The notes: generated by a model not told the origin, from the letters alone. A stretch of 43,061 nucleotides of DNA from Candidatus Fervidifonticultor quintus (GCA_031459535.1 JAVKIJ010000017.1:1-43061), one strand, 5' to 3'. Counted from the first letter of the stretch, positions 139 through 20,787 are shown. Translations and numbers: made by a program.

Positions 139-828
139 TCAGGTGGCCGCAGGCGCCGGTGGCGAGGCCGCCTCGACCACGGCCCGGACGAACTCCGGCT
201 CGGGCAGCGCACCCACCACCTCCTTCGCGTCGTTGATCACGGTCTTGGGTACCGCGTACACGTTGTACTGTTGCGCGAGCGAGGGAAACTCGCTGACCTC
301 GACGATGTCGGCCCGCACGCGCGGCGAGGTGATCGCGAGGGCGGCAGCCAGCCTGGCCGCCTTCGGACAATGGGGTCAGGTGGGGGTGACGAACACCTGC
401 ACGTGCGCCTCACCCGGCAGCGCCGCCAGCGCCGCGGCGGTCTCGGCTGAGACCGGCGCGCGCCCCTTGGACGCGTCGAGAATCACATCCACCAGGGTGA
501 CGAACTCGTAGCCACCTGGCATCCCGTAGAAGCGCACCCCGAAGTCCTCGGCGCCCACGACGGCGACGGCCGGAGTGCGGGCGATCCCATACTGCTTTGC
601 CAGGTCGGGCTCACTCGCGGCGCTGTGTTCCTCCAGGACGATGCGGTCGGAGAGAGTCGCCACTTCCTTCAGGATCTGCCGCGTGTACTCCACCATCTCG
701 TAGTCCGCGCCCGGCAGCGCGATCCCTCCGAGGCTGGGCGCGAAGAAGACGAGCCGCACGTCATGGCTCATCTCCTCGGTGAACCGCTTGCGCAGGAACG
801 CGGCGTCCTGATCGTTGAGCAGCGGCAT
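139..828 (-). CDS. Selenocysteine-containing protein-disulfide oxidoreductase (PDO/AhpF-NTD-like, two thioredoxin folds), 229 aa with Sec at TGA 376-378
   Basis: The track ORF 376..828 ends at VFVTPT-TGA. Read-through gives U-PHC-PKAARLAAALAITSPRVRADIVEVSEFPSLAQQYNVYAVPKTVIND...AAT* (stop 139-141), i.e. a UxxC motif and the cis-Pro VP motif. The G(M)PGGYEF motif of the PDO family is also present. Confidence 0.9.
343..361 (-). promoter_or_regulatory. Putative bacterial SECIS hairpin
   Basis: GGCGGCCA-GGC-TGGCTGCC stem-loop starting 14 nt 3' of the in-frame UGA, with G in a small apical loop. Confidence 0.65.
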
Positions 829-861
829 GGTTGCTCCCTTCCCAGGAACCCTTCCCCTGCC

Positions 862-887
862 AACGCGGCCCTGCGGGGCGCTATTCC
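862..887 (-). promoter_or_regulatory. Putative ECF (SigR/SigH-type thiol-stress) promoter for the PDO gene
   Basis: Minus strand GGAAT (887-883)-N18-GTT (864-862), matching the actinobacterial sigmaR/SigH consensus, 33 nt before the ATG. Confidence 0.55.
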
Positions 888-910
888 GCCTCCCCGCCGC
901 GTCTGATGAT

Positions 911-938
911 GCAGGGGAGGCGCCCGCACTGAGGGAAA
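911..938 (+). promoter_or_regulatory. GCAGG-N19-GAA putative alternative-sigma promoter
   Basis: GCAGGG-N18-GAAA ending 11 nt before ATG 950; the motif recurs upstream of several other genes. Confidence 0.5.
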
Positions 939-949
939 CACCGCCTCCG

Positions 950-1327
950 ATGGACCAGACCGTCTTCGCAGAGGATCTCGCGGTCCTCGCGCACCTGCGC
1001 GGCTACCCCGAAGACCTCCGCCACTACAGCAACCTGATCAAGCAGGCCCACCCGCGCGGCCTCTCGGCCCTGGCCTTGGTGCTGAGGCGCCCCCAGGCTT
1101 CGGACTCATTGATCGCCGCCGTCTGCCGCTACATCGCCGAGGGCACGCCCATTGCCAGCGCGGTGGAGGCGGCTGAGCTGTTCGGTCTGCCACCGGCCCA
1201 GTTCCTCGACCAGGTGGCGAGTCGGGCGGATTTCCCCAGACCGCTCTTCGCCGTGGAGCACCGGCGGCTGTGGCGCCGGGCCGACCTCGAGGCGTACCGG
1301 GCACAGGGTGGTCCCGGAGGCGGCTGA
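950..1327 (+). CDS. Hypothetical protein with a C-terminal AlpA/excisionase-like winged HTH
   Basis: C-terminus SAVEAAELFGL...DFPRPL...RRLWRRADLEAY resembles the AlpA/MerR-like HTH. ATG 950 chosen; the track start at 815 overlaps the divergent gene. Confidence 0.6.
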   Translation: MDQTVFAEDLAVLAHLRGYPEDLRHYSNLIKQAHPRGLSALALVLRRPQASDSLIAAVCRYIAEGTPIASAVEAAELFGLPPAQFLDQVASRADFPRPLFAVEHRRLWRRADLEAYRAQGGPGGG

Positions 1328-1539
1328 TGGCTAAGGTGGCGCTGTGGGTGACCTGCCGTCACTGCGGGGACGCCTTCGACACCGGGTTGCGCATGGACGA
1401 GGGCTCGTTCCGGCGGGGTACCCTGGCGGCGAACTACCACACCTGTCCCCGCTGTGGCACCCGCCAGACGTATGGCAAGGACGCGTACGAACTGCGCGAG
1501 GCGCCAACAGGCCTGCGCCCTCCCCGCAAAGAAGAATAG
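1327..1539 (+). CDS. Small zinc-ribbon protein (70 aa)
   Basis: CRHC...CPRC motif; TGATG stop/start overlap with the upstream gene. Confidence 0.7.
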   Translation: MAKVALWVTCRHCGDAFDTGLRMDEGSFRRGTLAANYHTCPRCGTRQTYGKDAYELREAPTGLRPPRKEE

Positions 1540-5439: not shown

Positions 5440-5948
5440 GGCCGCGACCGGTCGGACGCGAAGTCGGCGTCCGGTGTGATGCCCGCGCGCCAGGTCTCCA
5501 GCATCTCGCCCAGGGACGGCAGCGTGCTCGTCATGGTCTCGGTGAGCAGCGCGCGTGCCCTGATTTGCACCGGGTCCGGCTGAGACGGCGCTGGCGCGAG
5601 ACGGACCGCGGCCGTGATCGCCACCGCCACGGCCGCAGTGACTGCGGCGGTGCCGAGGGCGTGGCGCGGGGACGCCAGCCATCGCCATAGACGGGCCGCC
5701 GCCGGGGCGTTCTCACCCGCGGTGCGCTCGTGCAAGTGCTCCATGAACGCCGTCCAGAATCCCGGTGGCACGGCGAACTGCCCGGCCGCTCGCAGGCGCG
5801 CCACAGTGGCCTCGATGGCTGCGGCCTCGTCCCGGCAGCGCTGGCAGACCGCCAGGTGCTCCGCGACACCGACCCGCTGCTCCGGTGGGACCGATCCGGT
5901 CACGGCCTCGGCGAGACGCTCGAGGACCTCCTGGCAACGGTCCGTCAC
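5436..5948 (-). CDS. Zinc-finger (zf-HC2) membrane anti-sigma factor
   Basis: N-terminal C, then HLAVCQRC (HxxxCxxC) and one TM helix; directly downstream of the ECF sigma gene. Confidence 0.88.
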   Translation of the reverse strand: MTDRCQEVLERLAEAVTGSVPPEQRVGVAEHLAVCQRCRDEAAAIEATVARLRAAGQFAVPPGFWTAFMEHLHERTAGENAPAAARLWRWLASPRHALGTAAVTAAVAVAITAAVRLAPAPSQPDPVQIRARALLTETMTSTLPSLGEMLETWRAGITPDADFASDRSRP

Positions 5949-6499
5949 GGCGCCTCCACGCCCTCCTGGGCCAGGGTGCGGCGCAGCCGGCGCAGCGCCG
6001 CGAACATCGTGGCCTTCACCGTGCCCTCGGAACAGCCCATGATGCGCGCGATGTCCTGATAGGGTAGGTCCTGGTAGAGCCTCAGGACCACCATGGCGCG
6101 CTGCCGGGGTGGCAGGGCCGCCACTGCCCGGGCCACCATCCGGCCGGTCTCTCGGTCCTCCGCCACGTCCTCAATGGTCGCGCTGGTCGGGTGATCGCGT
6201 ATCGCCTCGCCGCCCACGACGAGCGGCATCTTCGCCAGCCGGTTGCGCAGGTCGAGACACAGGTTGACCGTGATCCGGTACAGCCAGGTGTAGAGCTGAG
6301 AACGGCCATCGAAGCGGGACAGGGCCCGGTGCGCGCGGACGAAGACTTCCTGGGTGACGTCCGCGGCGTCCTCGTGACTGCCCAGCATCCGGCGCGCCAC
6401 GCGGTAGACGCCGTCGCGGTACTTGATGACGAGCGCCGAAAAGGCGCTATCCTCCCCGCGCCGAAAGGCCTCGACGAGTGCGCGATCCTCGGCGTCCAC
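5945..6499 (-). CDS. ECF RNA polymerase sigma factor
   Basis: Region 2 (DAADVTQEVF, TWLYRITVN) and region 4 (LPPRQR...YQDIARIMGCSEGTVK). GTG 6499 follows AGAGGG. Confidence 0.93.
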   Translation of the reverse strand: MDAEDRALVEAFRRGEDSAFSALVIKYRDGVYRVARRMLGSHEDAADVTQEVFVRAHRALSRFDGRSQLYTWLYRITVNLCLDLRNRLAKMPLVVGGEAIRDHPTSATIEDVAEDRETGRMVARAVAALPPRQRAMVVLRLYQDLPYQDIARIMGCSEGTVKATMFAALRRLRRTLAQEGVEAP

Positions 6500-6520
6500 G
6501 TGGCATCCCTCTATGAATTG

Positions 6521-6546
6521 TAACACCGTCGGGCGCTCTTAGGTTT
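6521..6546 (-). promoter_or_regulatory. Putative ECF autoregulatory promoter AAAC-N18-GTTA
   Basis: Minus strand AAAC (6546-6543)-N18-GTTA (6524-6521); the same motif and spacing occur upstream of the M28 peptidase. Confidence 0.45.
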
Positions 6547-6727: not shown

Positions 6728-7345
6728 ATGCCGTTTGAGCTGCCACCGTTGCCATACCCGCACAACGCGCTGGAGCCCCACATTGATGAGATGACCATGC
6801 AGATCCATCACGGCAAGCACCATGCCGCCTACGTGACCAACCTCAACAAGGCCCTGGAGAGCGCGCCCGAGCTGGCGGGCAAGTCCATCGAGGACCTGCT
6901 CTCGCACCTGGACGCGGTGCCGGAGGCCATCCGCACCGCCGTGCGCAACAACGGCGGCGGCCACTACAACCACACCCTGTTCTGGGAGATCATGAAGCCC
7001 GGCGGGCCCGCGGCGCCGGGCGGCGCCCTTGCCGATGCGATCAACACCACCTTCGGCTCGATTGGCAAGCTGCAGGAGGCGGTGAATGCCGCCGGCCTGG
7101 GACGCTTTGGCAGCGGCTGGGCCTGGGTCGTCGTCGAGCCGGGCGGGAGGCTTGCCGTCACCAGCACCCCGAACCAGGACACGCCCATCATGGAAGGCAA
7201 GACGCCGGTCCTGGGCGTGGATGTTTGGGAGCACGCCTACTACCTCAAGTACCAGAACCGTCGGGCCGACTATCTGGCCGCTTGGTGGAACATCGTGAAC
7301 TGGGCCGAGGTGGCGGCGCGCTACGAGCAGGCACGGAGGGGCTGA
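6728..7345 (+). CDS. sodA: Superoxide dismutase, Mn-type
   Basis: [19 protein letters not shown] and DVWEHAYY; the GGG and Q positions favour Mn; AAGGAGG RBS. Confidence 0.95.
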
Positions 7346-16443: not shown

Positions 16444-17247
16444 CTACCTCGCGCGGTTGCGGTTGCGCACCGGAAACCTGCCCTGCAGCGCATCCACCAC
16501 GATGGCCTTCACTTCGGGCGAGAAGTCCTTGCGCAGGATCCACTCCAGGAAGCCACGGTCCTTCGCCGCCACCTCGCGTAGCGGCCGACCCTTGATCCCG
16601 TCCGGACCGAACGCGAACACCGCCTCTGCCCCCTGCCACAGGAAGCGCCCCTCAGGGTCCACGGCATCCGGCTCCCTCGGCGGCGAGAAATACTCGTGCA
16701 GCTGCTCGGGCGTACGGGGAAGATCGGGATACGTGGCCAGTTGCGCGTCCAGAATCTCGACGCAGGCCTCCACGTCGGCCGACGCGGAGTGCGGATCGCG
16801 CAGCTCCTTCCCGCAGTAATACCGGTAGGCGGCCGCCAGGTGGCGGGGTTCCCGGCGGTGGAAAATGATCTGGGAGTCCACCACGGCGCGACCGGTCAGG
16901 TCGAGGCGCTGCCCGGCTGCCGCCAGCTCGCGCACGAGCACTGGCAGGTCGAACCGCTGCACGTTGAACCCGGCCAGATCGGCATTCCCGATGAAGCGCA
17001 GCACGTCGGCGGCGATCGCCTCGAAACGCGGGGCATCCGCCACGTCGGCGTCGCCGATCCCGTGGATGCGGGTCGACTCCCGGGGGATCGGCATGCCGGG
17101 GTTCACCCGCCGGGTCAGCGACTCACGCCGGCCGTCGGGGTAGACCTTGACCAGGGCGATCTCGACGATCCGATCCACGGTGGGGTTGGGCCCGGTGGTC
17201 TCCAGATCGAGAAAGACGATGGGGTTACGCAGGACGAGGTGCTGCAC
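16444..17247 (-). CDS. DEDDh 3'-5' exonuclease (DnaQ-like)
   Basis: DLETTG, GFN..RFD, H.A.AD; C-terminal FG..KG..L..V...D..FL.W extension. Confidence 0.9.
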   Translation of the reverse strand: MQHLVLRNPIVFLDLETTGPNPTVDRIVEIALVKVYPDGRRESLTRRVNPGMPIPRESTRIHGIGDADVADAPRFEAIAADVLRFIGNADLAGFNVQRFDLPVLVRELAAAGQRLDLTGRAVVDSQIIFHRREPRHLAAAYRYYCGKELRDPHSASADVEACVEILDAQLATYPDLPRTPEQLHEYFSPPREPDAVDPEGRFLWQGAEAVFAFGPDGIKGRPLREVAAKDRGFLEWILRKDFSPEVKAIVVDALQGRFPVRNRNRAR

Positions 17248-17271
17248 GGACGCTCGACCGGTCAGCTCCGC

Positions 17272-18714
17272 TCAGTAGGCGCGGGCGTAGTAGACGGTGG
17301 CCGCAGACGACCTGCCGCACACCAGGCAGGCGCCCGCCGGCGCATCGTCGAGGGGAATCACCCGCGGTGAGGCGCCGGTGCGGTCCCGGATGGTATCTTC
17401 GCAGGCCTGATCGCCGCACCAGCGCGTCCGGACAAACCCGCGGCGCTCGCGGATGGCGGCCTCGACGGCCTCCAGCGTCTCGGCCTCGACCATGTGGCTG
17501 TCGCGGAAGGCCCGGGCCGCATCGAAGAACGCCCGTTGCACTTCGTCGAGGGCGGCCGCCACACGGGCCTCGATGCCGTCCAGCGAGGCGGTCTCCTTGG
17601 GACCGCCGCTGCGCCGCACCATGACCACCTGGCGGGCGGCCACGTCGCGGGGACCGATTTCCAGGCGCAGCGGCACGCCCCGCATCTCCCAGTCGTTGAA
17701 CTTCCAGCCGGGCGTATACTCGTCCCGGTCGTCCAGGCGCACCCGCGCCACCCGGTTCAGGCGGTCCGCCAGTGCCCGCGCCGCGGTCAGGACCTTCTCC
17801 CCTTCCTTCCCGGGGATCGGCACGATTACCACCTGAATGGGCGCGATACGCGGCGGCAGCGCCAGGCCCCGGTCGTCGCCGTGGGCCATGACCAGCGATC
17901 CGATGAGGCGCGTGGTCACCGCCCACGAGGTGGACCAGACGTACTTCTCGGTATTGTCGCGGTCGAGGAACTTCACGTTGAACGCCCTGGCGAAGTTCTG
18001 CCCCAGGAAATGACTCGTCCCCGCCTGGATCGCCTGCGCGTCCGGCATGAGCGCCTCGAGGGTGTAGGTCCAGTCGGCGCCCGCGAACTTCTCGGACGAC
18101 GGCTTCTTGCCCACCACCACCGGAATCGCCAGCACGTCCTCGAGCAGCTGTCGGTAGATCTCCAGGATCGTGCGGCACTCCTGGTCGGCTTCTTCCAGCG
18201 TGGCGTGCGCGGTGTGTCCTTCGTGCCACAGGAACTCGGCCGTACGAAGGAACAGCCGCGTCGCCTTTTCCCAGCGCACGACGCTGTTCCACTGGAGCAG
18301 CAGCACCGGCAGGTCGCGGTACGACTGGATCCACCGGGCGTACATGGGCAGGATGATCGCCTCGGACGTGGGCCGCACCGCCAGGCGCTCCGCCAGTTCC
18401 TCGTCGCCGCCGTGGGTGACCCAGGCCACCTGGGGGGCGAAGCCCTGCACGTGCTCGGCTTCCTTCTTGAGGAAACTCTCCGGCACGAACAGTGGGAAGT
18501 AGGCGTTCACGTGGCCGGTGGCCTTGAAGCGTTCGTCCAGCCACCGCTGGATGCCTTCCCACAGGGCGTAGCCGTACGGCCGGATGACCATGCACCCGCG
18601 AACTGGCGAGTAGTCGGCCAGCTCGGCTTTGAGGCAGACGGCCGTGTACCACTCCGAGAACTGCTCGGCCTTGCTGGGGATCTCCTTGACGAACACCTGT
18701 GACTCGGTGGACAT
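17272..18714 (-). CDS. proS: Proline--tRNA ligase, archaeal/eukaryote-like type (no INS editing domain)
   Basis: RPTSE, RWE..TRLFLRT.EFLW.EGH, QAGTSH.LGQNF, C-terminal Zn-like domain ending ARAY. Confidence 0.97.
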   Translation of the reverse strand: MSTESQVFVKEIPSKAEQFSEWYTAVCLKAELADYSPVRGCMVIRPYGYALWEGIQRWLDERFKATGHVNAYFPLFVPESFLKKEAEHVQGFAPQVAWVTHGGDEELAERLAVRPTSEAIILPMYARWIQSYRDLPVLLLQWNSVVRWEKATRLFLRTAEFLWHEGHTAHATLEEADQECRTILEIYRQLLEDVLAIPVVVGKKPSSEKFAGADWTYTLEALMPDAQAIQAGTSHFLGQNFARAFNVKFLDRDNTEKYVWSTSWAVTTRLIGSLVMAHGDDRGLALPPRIAPIQVVIVPIPGKEGEKVLTAARALADRLNRVARVRLDDRDEYTPGWKFNDWEMRGVPLRLEIGPRDVAARQVVMVRRSGGPKETASLDGIEARVAAALDEVQRAFFDAARAFRDSHMVEAETLEAVEAAIRERRGFVRTRWCGDQACEDTIRDRTGASPRVIPLDDAPAGACLVCGRSSAATVYYARAY

Positions 18715-18749
18715 GGTGAACGGGCCCCGCCAGCGCCGGGTGCACAGGG

Positions 18750-18779
18750 AGTCTAGCACGCCGCAGCGCAGCCCGACAA
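18750..18779 (-). promoter_or_regulatory. Sigma70-type promoter for proS
   Basis: TTGTCG-N18-TAGACT with a TGn extension. Confidence 0.5.
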
Positions 18780-18817
18780 GGCCGGGGATTTCGCTCGACC
18801 CCAGGGTGCGAAAGGCA

Positions 18818-18845
18818 GCAGGGGTGGCTCGCCCAGCCGTGGAAG
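18818..18845 (+). promoter_or_regulatory. GCAGG-N19-GAA putative alternative-sigma promoter
   Basis: GCAGGG-N18-GAAG upstream of the 635-aa membrane protein. Confidence 0.45.
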
Positions 18846-18879
18846 CCCCGCGGGGGAATAGATCCGGGGCACTCGCCGG

Positions 18880-20787
18880 GTGATGCGCGCCTCGGGAGCG
18901 AAGGCACCAGATGCCGCCGGGAGCGGCGCGCGGCCGCCAGGCCGCCTGACTCACAGGCTGGGCGCACTGGTCGTCGCCTTCCTCAGGTTTCGCCTCACCG
19001 ACGACATCGCGACGCTCCGGACGCACCTGCGCGGGCTCGTCCGCGACGAGCGGCGCGCCGTCTGCGCGGGTCTGGTCTTCAGCGCCCTGTTGGTGGTGAT
19101 CACGCCCGCACTCGCCGGTCTGGCCCCGCGCCTGGACGCACTGCCGTTCCCTGAGAGCTCTCGCCCCGGAGGGACGGCGACGGTCTCGACCCCGGCGCTT
19201 GCCGTGGCTCTCGCCGGTTTCGCCGTCGCTTGGAGCTATCTGCTCGCCGGCGCGGCGGCGGGGCCTGGCCTGTTGTGGATCGCGGCGAGCCTGCTCTACG
19301 CGTACCAGGTGTGGCCTATCGGTTTCCCGCTGGGACGGTCGGTTCTCCACCTCGTACCGCTGGGGCTGCCCGTGGCCATCGCCGCCCTGACACCCCACGG
19401 CTCTCGCTGGGGGAAGGTCGTCGCCGCGGTGCTCCTGGCCAGCATCGGCGCACGGAGTCTACCCGGCCCACCTGGGACGGCCCGGCTCCTGGCACTCCTG
19501 GCCGTGGTGGGCGCGGCGTTCCTTGGGCTCCAGGCCGTTCTGGCCAGGCGTCGGGCATCCGCGGGGTGGCGAGTTGCGCTGGGTACCTCCGTCCTCCTCG
19601 CCCATTTCCTCGTCGTCGCGGTGGTCTCGGGCGATCGCGCGGCCATGGCAGGCACCCTCAACGGTTCCCTGTTCCACTCGCTGTGGTTCCTCACGATCCT
19701 GTGGTTCTTGCTGGGTGCCTCGTTCGTGTCCGGTGCCGTGGCACTGGCGCGATTCGCCCGTGATGCCCTGGAGATCGCGATGCCCCACAGCTCTCCTGGG
19801 TGGATGCTCGCAACAGGCTGGGGGCTGCTGGCGGCTTGGGTGTGGGGCCTGCCAGCCGGCGACCATCCTCTGCCGCTGAGGCCCCTGTCCGCAGTGATCG
19901 CGGGCGCCGGGCTCGCCGCCGTGGTCGTGGTGTGGGTCCGCCGGGGCATGACGCGGCAACGGTTGAGCACGGTCTTCGTCGTGACCGCTGCGGCCCTGGT
20001 GATCCTGCGGGCCGCGCTGACACTCGACCTGGATCAGGCGATCGACCGCGGAGCTGGTGCCCTGGCGCTGCTGGCCTTTGTCTTCGCTCTGGTCTGGGAA
20101 GTCATCGGCCGCATCCCGCACATCCCACTCCAGACCCGGCACCTGTCGCGGCCGGCGCCCCTGCTGTTGTACATGGGTGCGATCCCCTTGGTCAGCGCCA
20201 GCATGCTGTTCGGCTTTGCGGCAGGTCTCGATACTTTTCAACGGCTGGCGCTGCTATCGCAGTTCAAGGGTGCCGCCGCCCTGTGGGTGCCCATCCTGCT
20301 GCTGATGCTGGCGCGGTCGTGGCCGGCGTTCCCCCCGCAGGCCGGGCGTCGCGTGGTCGCGGCGTTCGCGGCCGGCATGGTCATGGCGATCCCCGGCGTG
20401 CTCCTGCGGACGGCACTTCCCTCGGCCATGGTGGACGGCGGGCTGGTACTGGCCATCGCGGCGGCGGCAGCCGCTCTCGTCGTGCGCTGGCCCGATGCGC
20501 ACGCCTCAGTCCCGTCCATCGCCGTGGGCTATGCGCTCGCCTATGGATTCGCGGCCAGCTTGGCGCAGGTGGTCCTGATCCCGGTGCTGGCCGGCCTGTT
20601 GGAGGTGGTGGGAACGCTGTTCCCGCTGAACCCCGCGAGTACCCTGGCGGACGCCCTATTGGGCGCGGCCATGGCGGCCACATGGAGCGCCGTAGACCAG
20701 CAGCTCTTCTACGTGGTGACACCAGGTCTCGCAGGGCTCGCGGCCATGGCCGCGGCCCGGATCGCCGCCCGGATCACTCGGACGTGA
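18880..20787 (+). CDS. Uncharacterised polytopic membrane protein (635 aa)
   Basis: Many hydrophobic segments along its whole length; no family motif recognised; a paralogous fragment lies at about 24598-24956. Confidence 0.75.
   Translation: MMRASGAKAPDAAGSGARPPGRLTHRLGALVVAFLRFRLTDDIATLRTHLRGLVRDERRAVCAGLVFSALLVVITPALAGLAPRLDALPFPESSRPGGTATVSTPALAVALAGFAVAWSYLLAGAAAGPGLLWIAASLLYAYQVWPIGFPLGRSVLHLVPLGLPVAIAALTPHGSRWGKVVAAVLLASIGARSLPGPPGTARLLALLAVVGAAFLGLQAVLARRRASAGWRVALGTSVLLAHFLVVAVVSGDRAAMAGTLNGSLFHSLWFLTILWFLLGASFVSGAVALARFARDALEIAMPHSSPGWMLATGWGLLAAWVWGLPAGDHPLPLRPLSAVIAGAGLAAVVVVWVRRGMTRQRLSTVFVVTAAALVILRAALTLDLDQAIDRGAGALALLAFVFALVWEVIGRIPHIPLQTRHLSRPAPLLLYMGAIPLVSASMLFGFAAGLDTFQRLALLSQFKGAAALWVPILLLMLARSWPAFPPQAGRRVVAAFAAGMVMAIPGVLLRTALPSAMVDGGLVLAIAAAAAALVVRWPDAHASVPSIAVGYALAYGFAASLAQVVLIPVLAGLLEVVGTLFPLNPASTLADALLGAAMAATWSAVDQQLFYVVTPGLAGLAAMAAARIAARITRT

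Follow-up and report, generated by a model that had tools for sequence, protein, structure and literature searches.

An in-frame UGA at the active site of a protein disulfide oxidoreductase gene of Candidatus Fervidifonticultor quintus is very probably a selenocysteine codon

What does a TGA codon mean when it interrupts a gene exactly where a catalytic cysteine belongs? This question is raised by a gene in a 43,061-nucleotide stretch of DNA from Candidatus Fervidifonticultor quintus (GCA_031459535.1, JAVKIJ010000017.1:1-43061), the whole of which is called the window here. On the minus strand, the reading frame that runs from 828 to 139 is interrupted just once, at codon 151, by a TGA (378-376) with VFVTPT ahead of it and PHCPKAARLAA...YAVPKTVIN behind it. 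A list of open reading frames (ORFs) made with translation table 11 gives a 150-residue product that ends in VFVTPT, with its stop at 376. Beyond codon 151 the frame stays open for 78 further codons, up to a TGA at 141-139. An original prediction, made from the sequence alone, had placed the end of the ORF (VFVTPT-TGA) at 376-378, counted the 78 open codons and proposed a 229-residue selenoprotein. Its coordinates and counts, these and all the others, were correct on recheck. The complete coding sequence would then occupy 139..828 on the minus strand (229 residues, from an ATG at 828-826 to the true stop, a TGA at 141-139) and encode a selenoprotein of the protein disulfide oxidoreductase (PDO) type. 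It is very probable, judging by comparison with relatives, that the UGA at codon 151 is decoded as selenocysteine (Sec) and that this is a real selenoprotein gene.

One trivial explanation can be set aside at once. Three DNA runs of a single study that bears the label hot springs metagenome (X1, possibly the source, X2 and X3) have contigs that cover 376-378, and these carry no other letter there. The original prediction had named TGC or TGT in reads at this codon as a finding that would count against it, and only TGA is present in these contigs. A sequencing error at 376-378 is excluded by them.

The first clue to the meaning of the codon is the family to which the uninterrupted protein belongs. 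The read-through product scores 221.3 bits on the NCBIfam model TIGR02187 (PDO_seleno_TRX, 'protein disulfide oxidoreductase'), which has a cut-off of 185, and the match spans residues 6-220 of the protein and positions 2-209 of the 209 in the profile. The 150-residue product that ends at the TGA reaches 111.9 bits, below the cut-off. Pfam places a Thioredoxin_3 domain at residues 142-218. The closest solved structures by sequence are the PDOs of Pyrococcus furiosus (PfPDO; 1a8l), P. horikoshii and Aquifex, and the match to 1a8l (E-value 1.2e-33) aligns residues 1-220 with residues 1-224. In this alignment residue 151 faces the first Cys of the CPYC motif in the C-terminal unit (C-unit) and AVPK faces AVPK, while the CQYC of the N-terminal unit (N-unit) of PfPDO faces a Cys-free stretch, A-D-Y-E-M-V-E-Y, in the window protein. 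The proposed Sec codon (376..378, minus strand), which would specify U151 as the first residue of a U-P-H-C motif, is located both by its alignment column and by this match to PfPDO. The TGA therefore lies where it had been said to lie, where the C-terminal CxxC has its first Cys, with Cys opposite it in homologues that include PfPDO with its CPYC.

The remaining parts of a thioredoxin-type active site are also encoded beyond the TGA. Cys154 (codon at 367..369, minus strand), the resolving residue of the UxxC motif, is invariant in alignment A2 and in all 40 copies extracted from relatives (see below), and it is the only cysteine in the read-through protein. The 75 residues that follow U151-P-H-C154 include A-V-P-K at 192-195. 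Within this motif V193 and P194 are invariant in A2, and the motif corresponds to the AVPK of PfPDO. Pro194 (codon at 247..249, minus strand) lies in the loop that faces the active site and is presumably the cis-Pro of the thioredoxin fold.

Structure prediction agrees with this assignment. An AlphaFold model built from 22 sequences has a predicted local distance difference test score (pLDDT) of 93 and a predicted template modelling score (pTM) of 0.90, and puts residue 151 between a strand (141-147) and a helix (154-167). In a Foldseek search with the model, PDOs come out on top (six entries, TMq 0.81-0.88), and N-terminal domains of AhpF rank next (TMq 0.75-0.83). Superposition on 1a8l gives a template modelling (TM) score of 0.88 and a root mean square deviation of 1.7 Å. 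Two tandem thioredoxin-fold units in a chain of about 225 residues, a UxxC at the N-terminus of a helix and a conserved proline loop are traits of TIGR02187, and all are found here. The second CxxC of the two-site Pyrococcus type, which belongs in the N-unit, is absent, so the protein is filed under TIGR02187 but outside the two-site subtype. Models for AhpF match only the part that corresponds to its N-terminal domain, with scores far below their cut-offs (TIGR03140, 59.4 against 502.9; TIGR03143, 86.4 against 687.65), and the protein ends at residue 229, so it is not an AhpF. Taken together, sequence and fold identify a predicted disulfide oxidoreductase of the PDO/AhpF-N-terminal-domain type within TIGR02187. 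Judged by eye, its N-terminus does not look like a signal peptide and the protein is probably cytoplasmic.

Comparison with well-known relatives of the fold makes the peculiarities of the window protein clear. PfPDO and the PDOs of P. horikoshii, Aquifex aeolicus and Aeropyrum pernix likewise have a full-length architecture of two thioredoxin-fold units, and PfPDO and the window protein have in common the motif of the C-unit, the FVTPT beside it and the AVPK loop. However, PfPDO has CPYC plus the N-unit CQYC, whereas the window protein would have Sec-Pro-His-Cys and has no N-unit site. PDOs are reduced by thioredoxin reductase. The N-terminal domain of AhpF (1zyn, 1hyu, 4o5q, 5h29) also consists of two fused thioredoxin folds with a single CxxC in the second, but AhpF carries a FAD/NADH reductase domain that the window protein does not have. 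No ahpC neighbour was seen in 20 loci of the gene. A further likeness is to DsbA, which carries CPHC and therefore has the same Pro-His dipeptide. DsbA works as an oxidase in the periplasm and contains an inserted helical domain, and the likeness is one of motif, with no homology beyond the thioredoxin fold. The shared dipeptide might at most offer a lead on redox tuning, by analogy.

Is the TGA an accident of one genome? A set of 41 genomes from the same genus, family and order was searched, and 36 of them had a match (52 match rows). Forty rows were extracted, leaving out five partial copies at contig ends (two with the TGA), two full-length copies without a stop and five weak matches. At the same alignment column, checked for every Sec copy, 30 of the 40 have TGA and 10 have a Cys codon (TGT or TGC, giving CPYC). 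Two of the 30 come from unpublished genomes (L032 from G022 and L039 from G013), and excluding both leaves 28 of 38; the counts of matches, selB and tRNA-Sec and those for the whole phylum given below also take in unpublished genomes. Relatives lacking the TGA had been named beforehand as another result that would speak against a selenoprotein, and three quarters of the copies keep it. Across the phylum (94 genomes, all of one order) a match at E <= 1e-30 is present in 71, and 57 of the 81 match rows hold exactly one in-frame TGA, one per genome (57/94 genomes); its position is confirmed for 30 of these, the other 27 being counted by their one in-frame TGA. A scan of a named genome collection gave six loci, the best with 60% identity. 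Pairing of Sec with Cys at one position is a criterion for bacterial selenoproteins, and it is found here both among the relatives and in a search of a 5.8-billion-protein collection, where 30 of the 120 best hits are full-length and all 30 have Cys at this position.

What if the TGA is nevertheless a genuine stop? In this scenario the product would be a 150-residue thioredoxin-like unit without an active site, and the 78 codons behind it an untranslated remnant. Gene callers do treat the codon in this way, since the other 90 of the 120 best hits are no longer than 152 residues and each has its last residue directly ahead of the Sec codon (VFVTPT in 82 cases), and TGA is the commonest stop in the window. 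However, the part downstream of the TGA is more conserved than the part upstream. Mean identity to the window protein over 29 orthologues is 70.6% past the TGA and 61.6% ahead of it, and the differences past the TGA gather at third codon positions (0.46, compared with 0.22 and 0.18 at the other two). The greater conservation and the third-position variation together argue that this region is translated. It is also the downstream part that completes the fold and lifts the family score from 111.9 to 221.3 bits. Furthermore, a 150-residue product would have no redox residue because the sole Cys is residue 154, and a chance stop would have fallen exactly opposite the catalytic Cys. A genuine stop is therefore very unlikely.

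A related idea is that the gene is split, with residues 1-150 made as one piece and a C-terminal piece started from an internal GTG (for example at 318), the two forming a PDO-like heterodimer. A mechanical ORF of 59 residues does run from the GTG at 318 to 139. However, a restart there lies past PHC and would omit the whole active site, there is no start codon between the TGA and PHC, and the frame is continuous across the TGA in 30 of 30 Sec forms. It is hard to give this arrangement any credence. Reassignment of TGA throughout the genome was considered as well and is ruled out, because TGA ends 21 of the 29 long ORFs of the window with a high GC content at third codon positions. The genes for superoxide dismutase, an extracytoplasmic function (ECF) sigma factor and prolyl-tRNA synthetase, for instance, close at a TGA right after their last Pfam domain.

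If UGA 151 is read as Sec, a selenocysteine insertion sequence (SECIS) should lie just behind it. The original prediction had pointed to a GC-rich hairpin 14 nucleotides past the UGA, and one is found at precisely those coordinates (343..361, minus strand). Its sequence from 361 to 343 is GGCGGCCA-GGC-UGGCUGCC, with the 5' arm at 361-354, the loop GGC at 353-351 (A-GGC-U) and the 3' arm at 350-343. The spacer after the TGA is 14 nucleotides, the distance from UGA to loop is 22 nucleotides, and the 8-bp stem has a free energy of -13.1 kcal/mol when folded alone. The rules for bacterial SECIS (bSECIS) elements, as given in the legend to Fig. 2 of PMC13188914, are a loop of 3-9 nucleotides on a stem of 4-16 bp, a G at the first two positions of the loop (mostly N1-G-[G/U]-N-N2 with N1 and N2 paired), 16-37 nucleotides from UGA to loop and a minimum free energy of -7.5 kcal/mol or lower. 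All four describe the window hairpin, so that the expectation of a SECIS immediately downstream of the UGA is borne out as far as the published bacterial model goes.

More telling is the comparison across relatives. In the 30 Sec forms the stem columns are paired in 95.8% of cells, a value that none of 500 shuffles reaches, and controls in which the partner was slid by 1-3 columns give 18.8-57.1%. The same columns in the 10 Cys forms, which encode much the same peptide, are paired in 42.5%. The outermost pair (18-36), formed by the third positions of two codons, reads G-C in 13 sequences and C-G in another 9. At pair 21-33, 28 sequences have G-C, one has A-U and one, the window, has G-U. In the aligned sequences, then, both pairs show compensatory changes. 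There is also a difference in codon choice. At the Arg codon that supplies the GG of the loop, 29 of 30 Sec forms use AGG, which none of the 10 Cys forms has; theirs is CGC, CGG, CGT or CAC.

A SECIS would be of no use without the factors that read it, and the original prediction had expected selA, selB, selC and selD in the genome. The assembly that holds the window (G000; 138 contigs, 88.85% complete) contains tRNA-Sec, the selC product, at G000:C130:2809-2900 (66.1 bits against a gathering score of 47; called tRNA-SeC with anticodon TCA by ARAGORN) and selD at G000:C46:26773-27696 (L016; 373.9 bits). selD has an in-frame TGA of its own within A-G-U-A-S-K, which we take to be the catalytic Cys/Sec position of SelD, and is thus also a selenoprotein gene that a gene caller would cut at the TGA. 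This part of the expectation held; selA and selB are present as contig-end fragments only, and are taken up below. Among the relatives, selB is over the cut-off in 35 of 41 genomes and tRNA-Sec is found in 37 of 41, the two usually lying a few kb apart on one contig. Only one genome with the TGA form, G002 (84% complete), lacks both. Conversely, G028 (100% complete) has neither selB nor tRNA-Sec, and its sole strong PDO copy has no in-frame stop.

The hairpin and the machinery also bear on a subtler alternative, namely that the UGA is read through but that the residue is not, or not always, Sec. Cys might be inserted via tRNA-Sec and SelB, or Trp or Cys via near-cognate tRNAs, and in the case of Cys insertion the protein would act as an ordinary CPHC thiol enzyme. 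Selection on the region past the TGA would be explained by read-through of any kind. Insertion of Cys at Sec codons under selenium limitation is known in other systems, and Cys appears to be tolerated here, since a database protein with CPHC (P0004; 233 residues, 65% identical) is nested within the Sec clade of the tree described below. Against this stand the conserved hairpin with its SelB-type loop GG, whose AGG codon is found in 0 of 10 Cys forms, and the conservation in the same genomes of the Sec machinery and of a Sec-containing SelD. Nor would TGA be expected to persist in 57 genomes if Cys were the intended residue. Read-through that yields something other than Sec is an unlikely account, and decoding of UGA 151 as Sec is preferred.

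Several observations nevertheless weigh against decoding as Sec. To begin with, the presence of selenium in the polypeptide and the passage of translation past the UGA are deduced indirectly, from sequence comparison. The one contig from an RNA library (X4; 395 nucleotides with seven differences) spans 451-845 and stops short of the UGA. Its origin may be a related strain or DNA carry-over, and it is counted neither way for transcription or translation. As for the machinery, selA is represented in the window's genome by its first 153 residues (G000:C40:4799-5239), where it runs off the end of contig C40, and selB by its last 71 residues (G000:C130:18-170) at the start of contig C130, with tRNA-Sec 2.6 kb downstream of the selB fragment. 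Apparently the selA-selB region falls in the assembly gap between C40 and C130. Because both genes are present as contig-end fragments, an intact Sec pathway in this organism is deduced from its relatives.

Other reservations concern the hairpin. A 76-nucleotide stretch that contains it folds no better than shuffled sequence (z = 0.09; 107 of 200 shuffles are as stable). Given this value and a GC content of 70%, the fold of a single sequence proves nothing and the support comes from comparison across relatives. That comparison has its own limits: the 30 Sec sequences are kin, both sides vary in only two of the eight stem pairs, and nucleotide conservation of the stem is partly due to coding because it sits in the conserved peptide PRAARLAA. 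One Sec form, L046 (G029:C411), has a different and weaker hairpin, with a shorter GGCC...GGCC in place of the 8-bp stem. L046 is the sole Sec form without AGG and encodes A-A-R-V-A-Y past the TGA; in its genome (G029, 72% complete) tRNA-Sec was found and selB was not. Finally, a search of positions 1-1500 with Rfam at E <= 10 gave three chance hits to eukaryotic RNAs and no family; Rfam has no model for bacterial SECIS elements of this type. There is also a functional reservation, in that no redox partner (thioredoxin reductase, peroxiredoxin or other) was seen to adjoin the gene in 20 loci with 1.5-kb flanks.

How would such an enzyme work? The hairpin at 343-361, within the coding sequence, would recruit SelB and tRNA-Sec so that UGA 151 is read as Sec. 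The second unit's first helix would then begin with a U151-P-H-C154 redox centre. The U151 selenolate would attack a substrate disulfide or another oxidised sulfur or selenium species, and C154 would resolve the mixed intermediate to leave an intramolecular selenenylsulfide. An NADPH-dependent reductase, for example thioredoxin reductase, might then re-reduce the selenenylsulfide. This cycle is proposed from the chemistry of thioredoxin-fold families in general, and as no redox partner adjoins the gene the choice of reductant is a guess; the substrates are suggested on the same footing. Because the first unit has lost its own CxxC, the protein would be a single-site enzyme, like the N-terminal domain of AhpF.

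The loss of the N-unit site draws attention to the other PDOs in these genomes. The genome that contains the window also has a canonical Cys paralogue (L056, G000:C1:72378-73040; 242.1 bits on TIGR02187), with CPYC in the C-unit, a CxxC in the N-unit and 45% identity to the Sec form. Both PDO forms are held by further relatives as well (G003, G004, G025, G031 and G038). The N-unit CxxC is absent from 27 of 27 Sec forms of the main clade, and is kept in 10 of 10 Cys paralogues and in three divergent Sec forms of one family (L049, L053 and L059). The dipeptide within the motif follows a similar division: 28 of 30 Sec forms have Pro-His, and all 10 genomic Cys forms have Pro-Tyr. Among the 30 full-length database hits CPYC occurs 24 times, CPHC five times and CAYC once.

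A quick maximum-likelihood tree, unrooted and with support values from the Shimodaira-Hasegawa-like approximate likelihood ratio test (SH-aLRT), gathers 27 Sec forms and one Cys form, P0004, into one clade (support 95). This main clade tracks the genome families, which fits vertical inheritance plus one replacement of Sec by Cys. P0004 lies inside it beside L035 (SH-aLRT 96), and looks like a Sec-to-Cys replacement in which the His was retained. The label Sec or Cys changes at least three times on the tree, with two of the placements weak or on long branches. The three divergent forms L049 (G032), L053 (G035) and L059 (G038:C141) are two-site Sec PDOs, one of them with UPYC, and do not group firmly with the main Sec clade. 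Their placement hints that Cys and Sec may have been exchanged more than once. It should be noted that the association of Sec, His and loss of the N-unit site is an observation and not a statistic, since in essence the main clade represents a single event.

The surroundings of the gene add some detail. A Shine-Dalgarno-like AAGGGAG, read from the sequence and with its function presumed, lies 5 nucleotides 5' of the ATG (834..840, minus strand). Two neighbours of the gene are conserved, each in 13 of 20 loci: a small ORF in divergent orientation and, downstream, a protein that by eye resembles a FabF-type ketoacyl synthase. In the window the divergent ORF is at 815-1327 (plus strand) and contains the motif ...HLRGYPEDL..., and a second small ORF at 1270-1539 (plus strand), zinc-ribbon-like with CxxC...CxxC, is kept in nine loci. 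Neither of these two ORFs has a Pfam match. They may have a regulatory link to the PDO gene. An Fe/Mn superoxide dismutase (6728-7345, plus strand) and the ECF sigma factor (about 5945-6526, minus strand) are encoded some 6 kb away from the PDO gene.

The window begins with the final part of an insertion sequence (IS; positions 1-127), which ends 11 nucleotides past the stop codon of the PDO gene. There are 11 copies of it in the genome, compared with 0 for a control pattern, the others being on contigs C102, C4, C37, C73, C23, C69, C64, C47, C100 and C90 of G000. The copies are identical over the roughly 100 bases that they share, and for 10 of the 11 a contig end is no more than about 100 bases away. 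The copy on C47 runs into a DUF772 transposase (E-value 1.3e-17). Run depth at positions 100-130 is about 20- to 40-fold above that over the PDO gene. The contig evidently breaks at the start of the window because this insertion sequence is repeated. Elsewhere in the window, 6 of 16 mechanical in-frame TGA candidates were scanned for other selenoprotein genes, and no Pfam domain extends across a TGA in any of the six. At 16444-19398 (minus strand) the prolyl-tRNA synthetase gene closes with a TGA, behind which a gene for an RNase T-like exonuclease lies in the same frame. The TGA between them was rejected as a Sec site, being in frame only mechanically, with the Pfam domains of the synthetase ending before it.

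How much of this is new? The listing of UxxC proteins of TIGR02187 as selenoproteins goes back to 2006, when the tables of PMC1794560 included those of Carboxydothermus hydrogenoformans and Symbiobacterium thermophilum. In the same vein, the entries for the family in PMC9312934 and in a 2026 review (PMC13188914) give it as UxxC with one Sec, 'predicted with high confidence', and cite no experimental proof for TIGR02187 selenoproteins. Even the NCBIfam short name, PDO_seleno_TRX, carries 'seleno'. The original prediction consequently rated the novelty too high. The published proteins belong to the same hidden Markov model family as the window protein and have Sec at the same position in UxxC, but, as far as their listings go, they are from other lineages than the small phylum of the window (94 genomes). 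Judged by title, the papers that a search on Sec use in Armatimonadota, which is NCBI's label for the relatives, brought up deal with hydrogenases and HdrA and not with a TIGR02187 PDO. The family, the position of Sec and the insertion mechanism are thus already known from these sources. New are the lineage and the degree of conservation, together with the single-site UPHC variant and the extent of the mis-annotation. In this lineage the Sec form is widespread and apparently inherited vertically, has lost the N-unit CxxC and carries the His dipeptide of UPHC.

Mis-annotation is easily seen in the databases, where the relatives are entered as metagenome-assembled genomes labelled 'Armatimonadota bacterium' or 'bacterium'. 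The short hits are named 'hypothetical protein [Armatimonadota bacterium]' or '[bacterium]' by NCBI and 'alkyl hydroperoxide reductase subunit AhpF' by JGI. The label 'hypothetical' would follow from the score of the stub lying under the TIGR02187 cut-off, and the dozens of 150-residue stub entries exist because gene callers stop at the Sec codon. That standard annotation would truncate the protein, as the original prediction had foreseen, is evident from the 90 short entries among the 120 best hits. A systematic annotation error is thereby documented for the PDO selenoprotein family. Knowledge of the Sec insertion mechanism and of the families that use Sec is unchanged, and the finding is of modest interest to specialists and useful for annotation.

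What might the Sec form do for these organisms? In the main Sec clade the change from Cys to Sec, the change from Tyr to His (giving UPHC) and the loss of the N-unit CxxC occur together, and the two-site CPYC paralogue is retained alongside in the same genomes. One tentative idea, which we consider doubtful at present, is that this clade is a functionally distinct subfamily found across the phylum and not simply the ordinary PDO with Sec in place of Cys. The Sec form would then serve these hot-spring bacteria in a role of its own. It might be a reductase, fast and resistant to oxidation, that acts on a peroxidase or on selenium or sulfur species, or alternatively a DsbA-like oxidant. On this view the His would be a specific adaptation to selenolate chemistry. 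Whatever its role, the co-occurrence of Sec and Cys paralogues, the apparent Sec-to-Cys replacement in P0004 and the single- and two-site variants offer natural material on the benefit of Sec to a thioredoxin-fold enzyme. For a poorly known, uncultured phylum of hot springs, a well-supported selenoprotein and a working Sec-decoding trait would be added.

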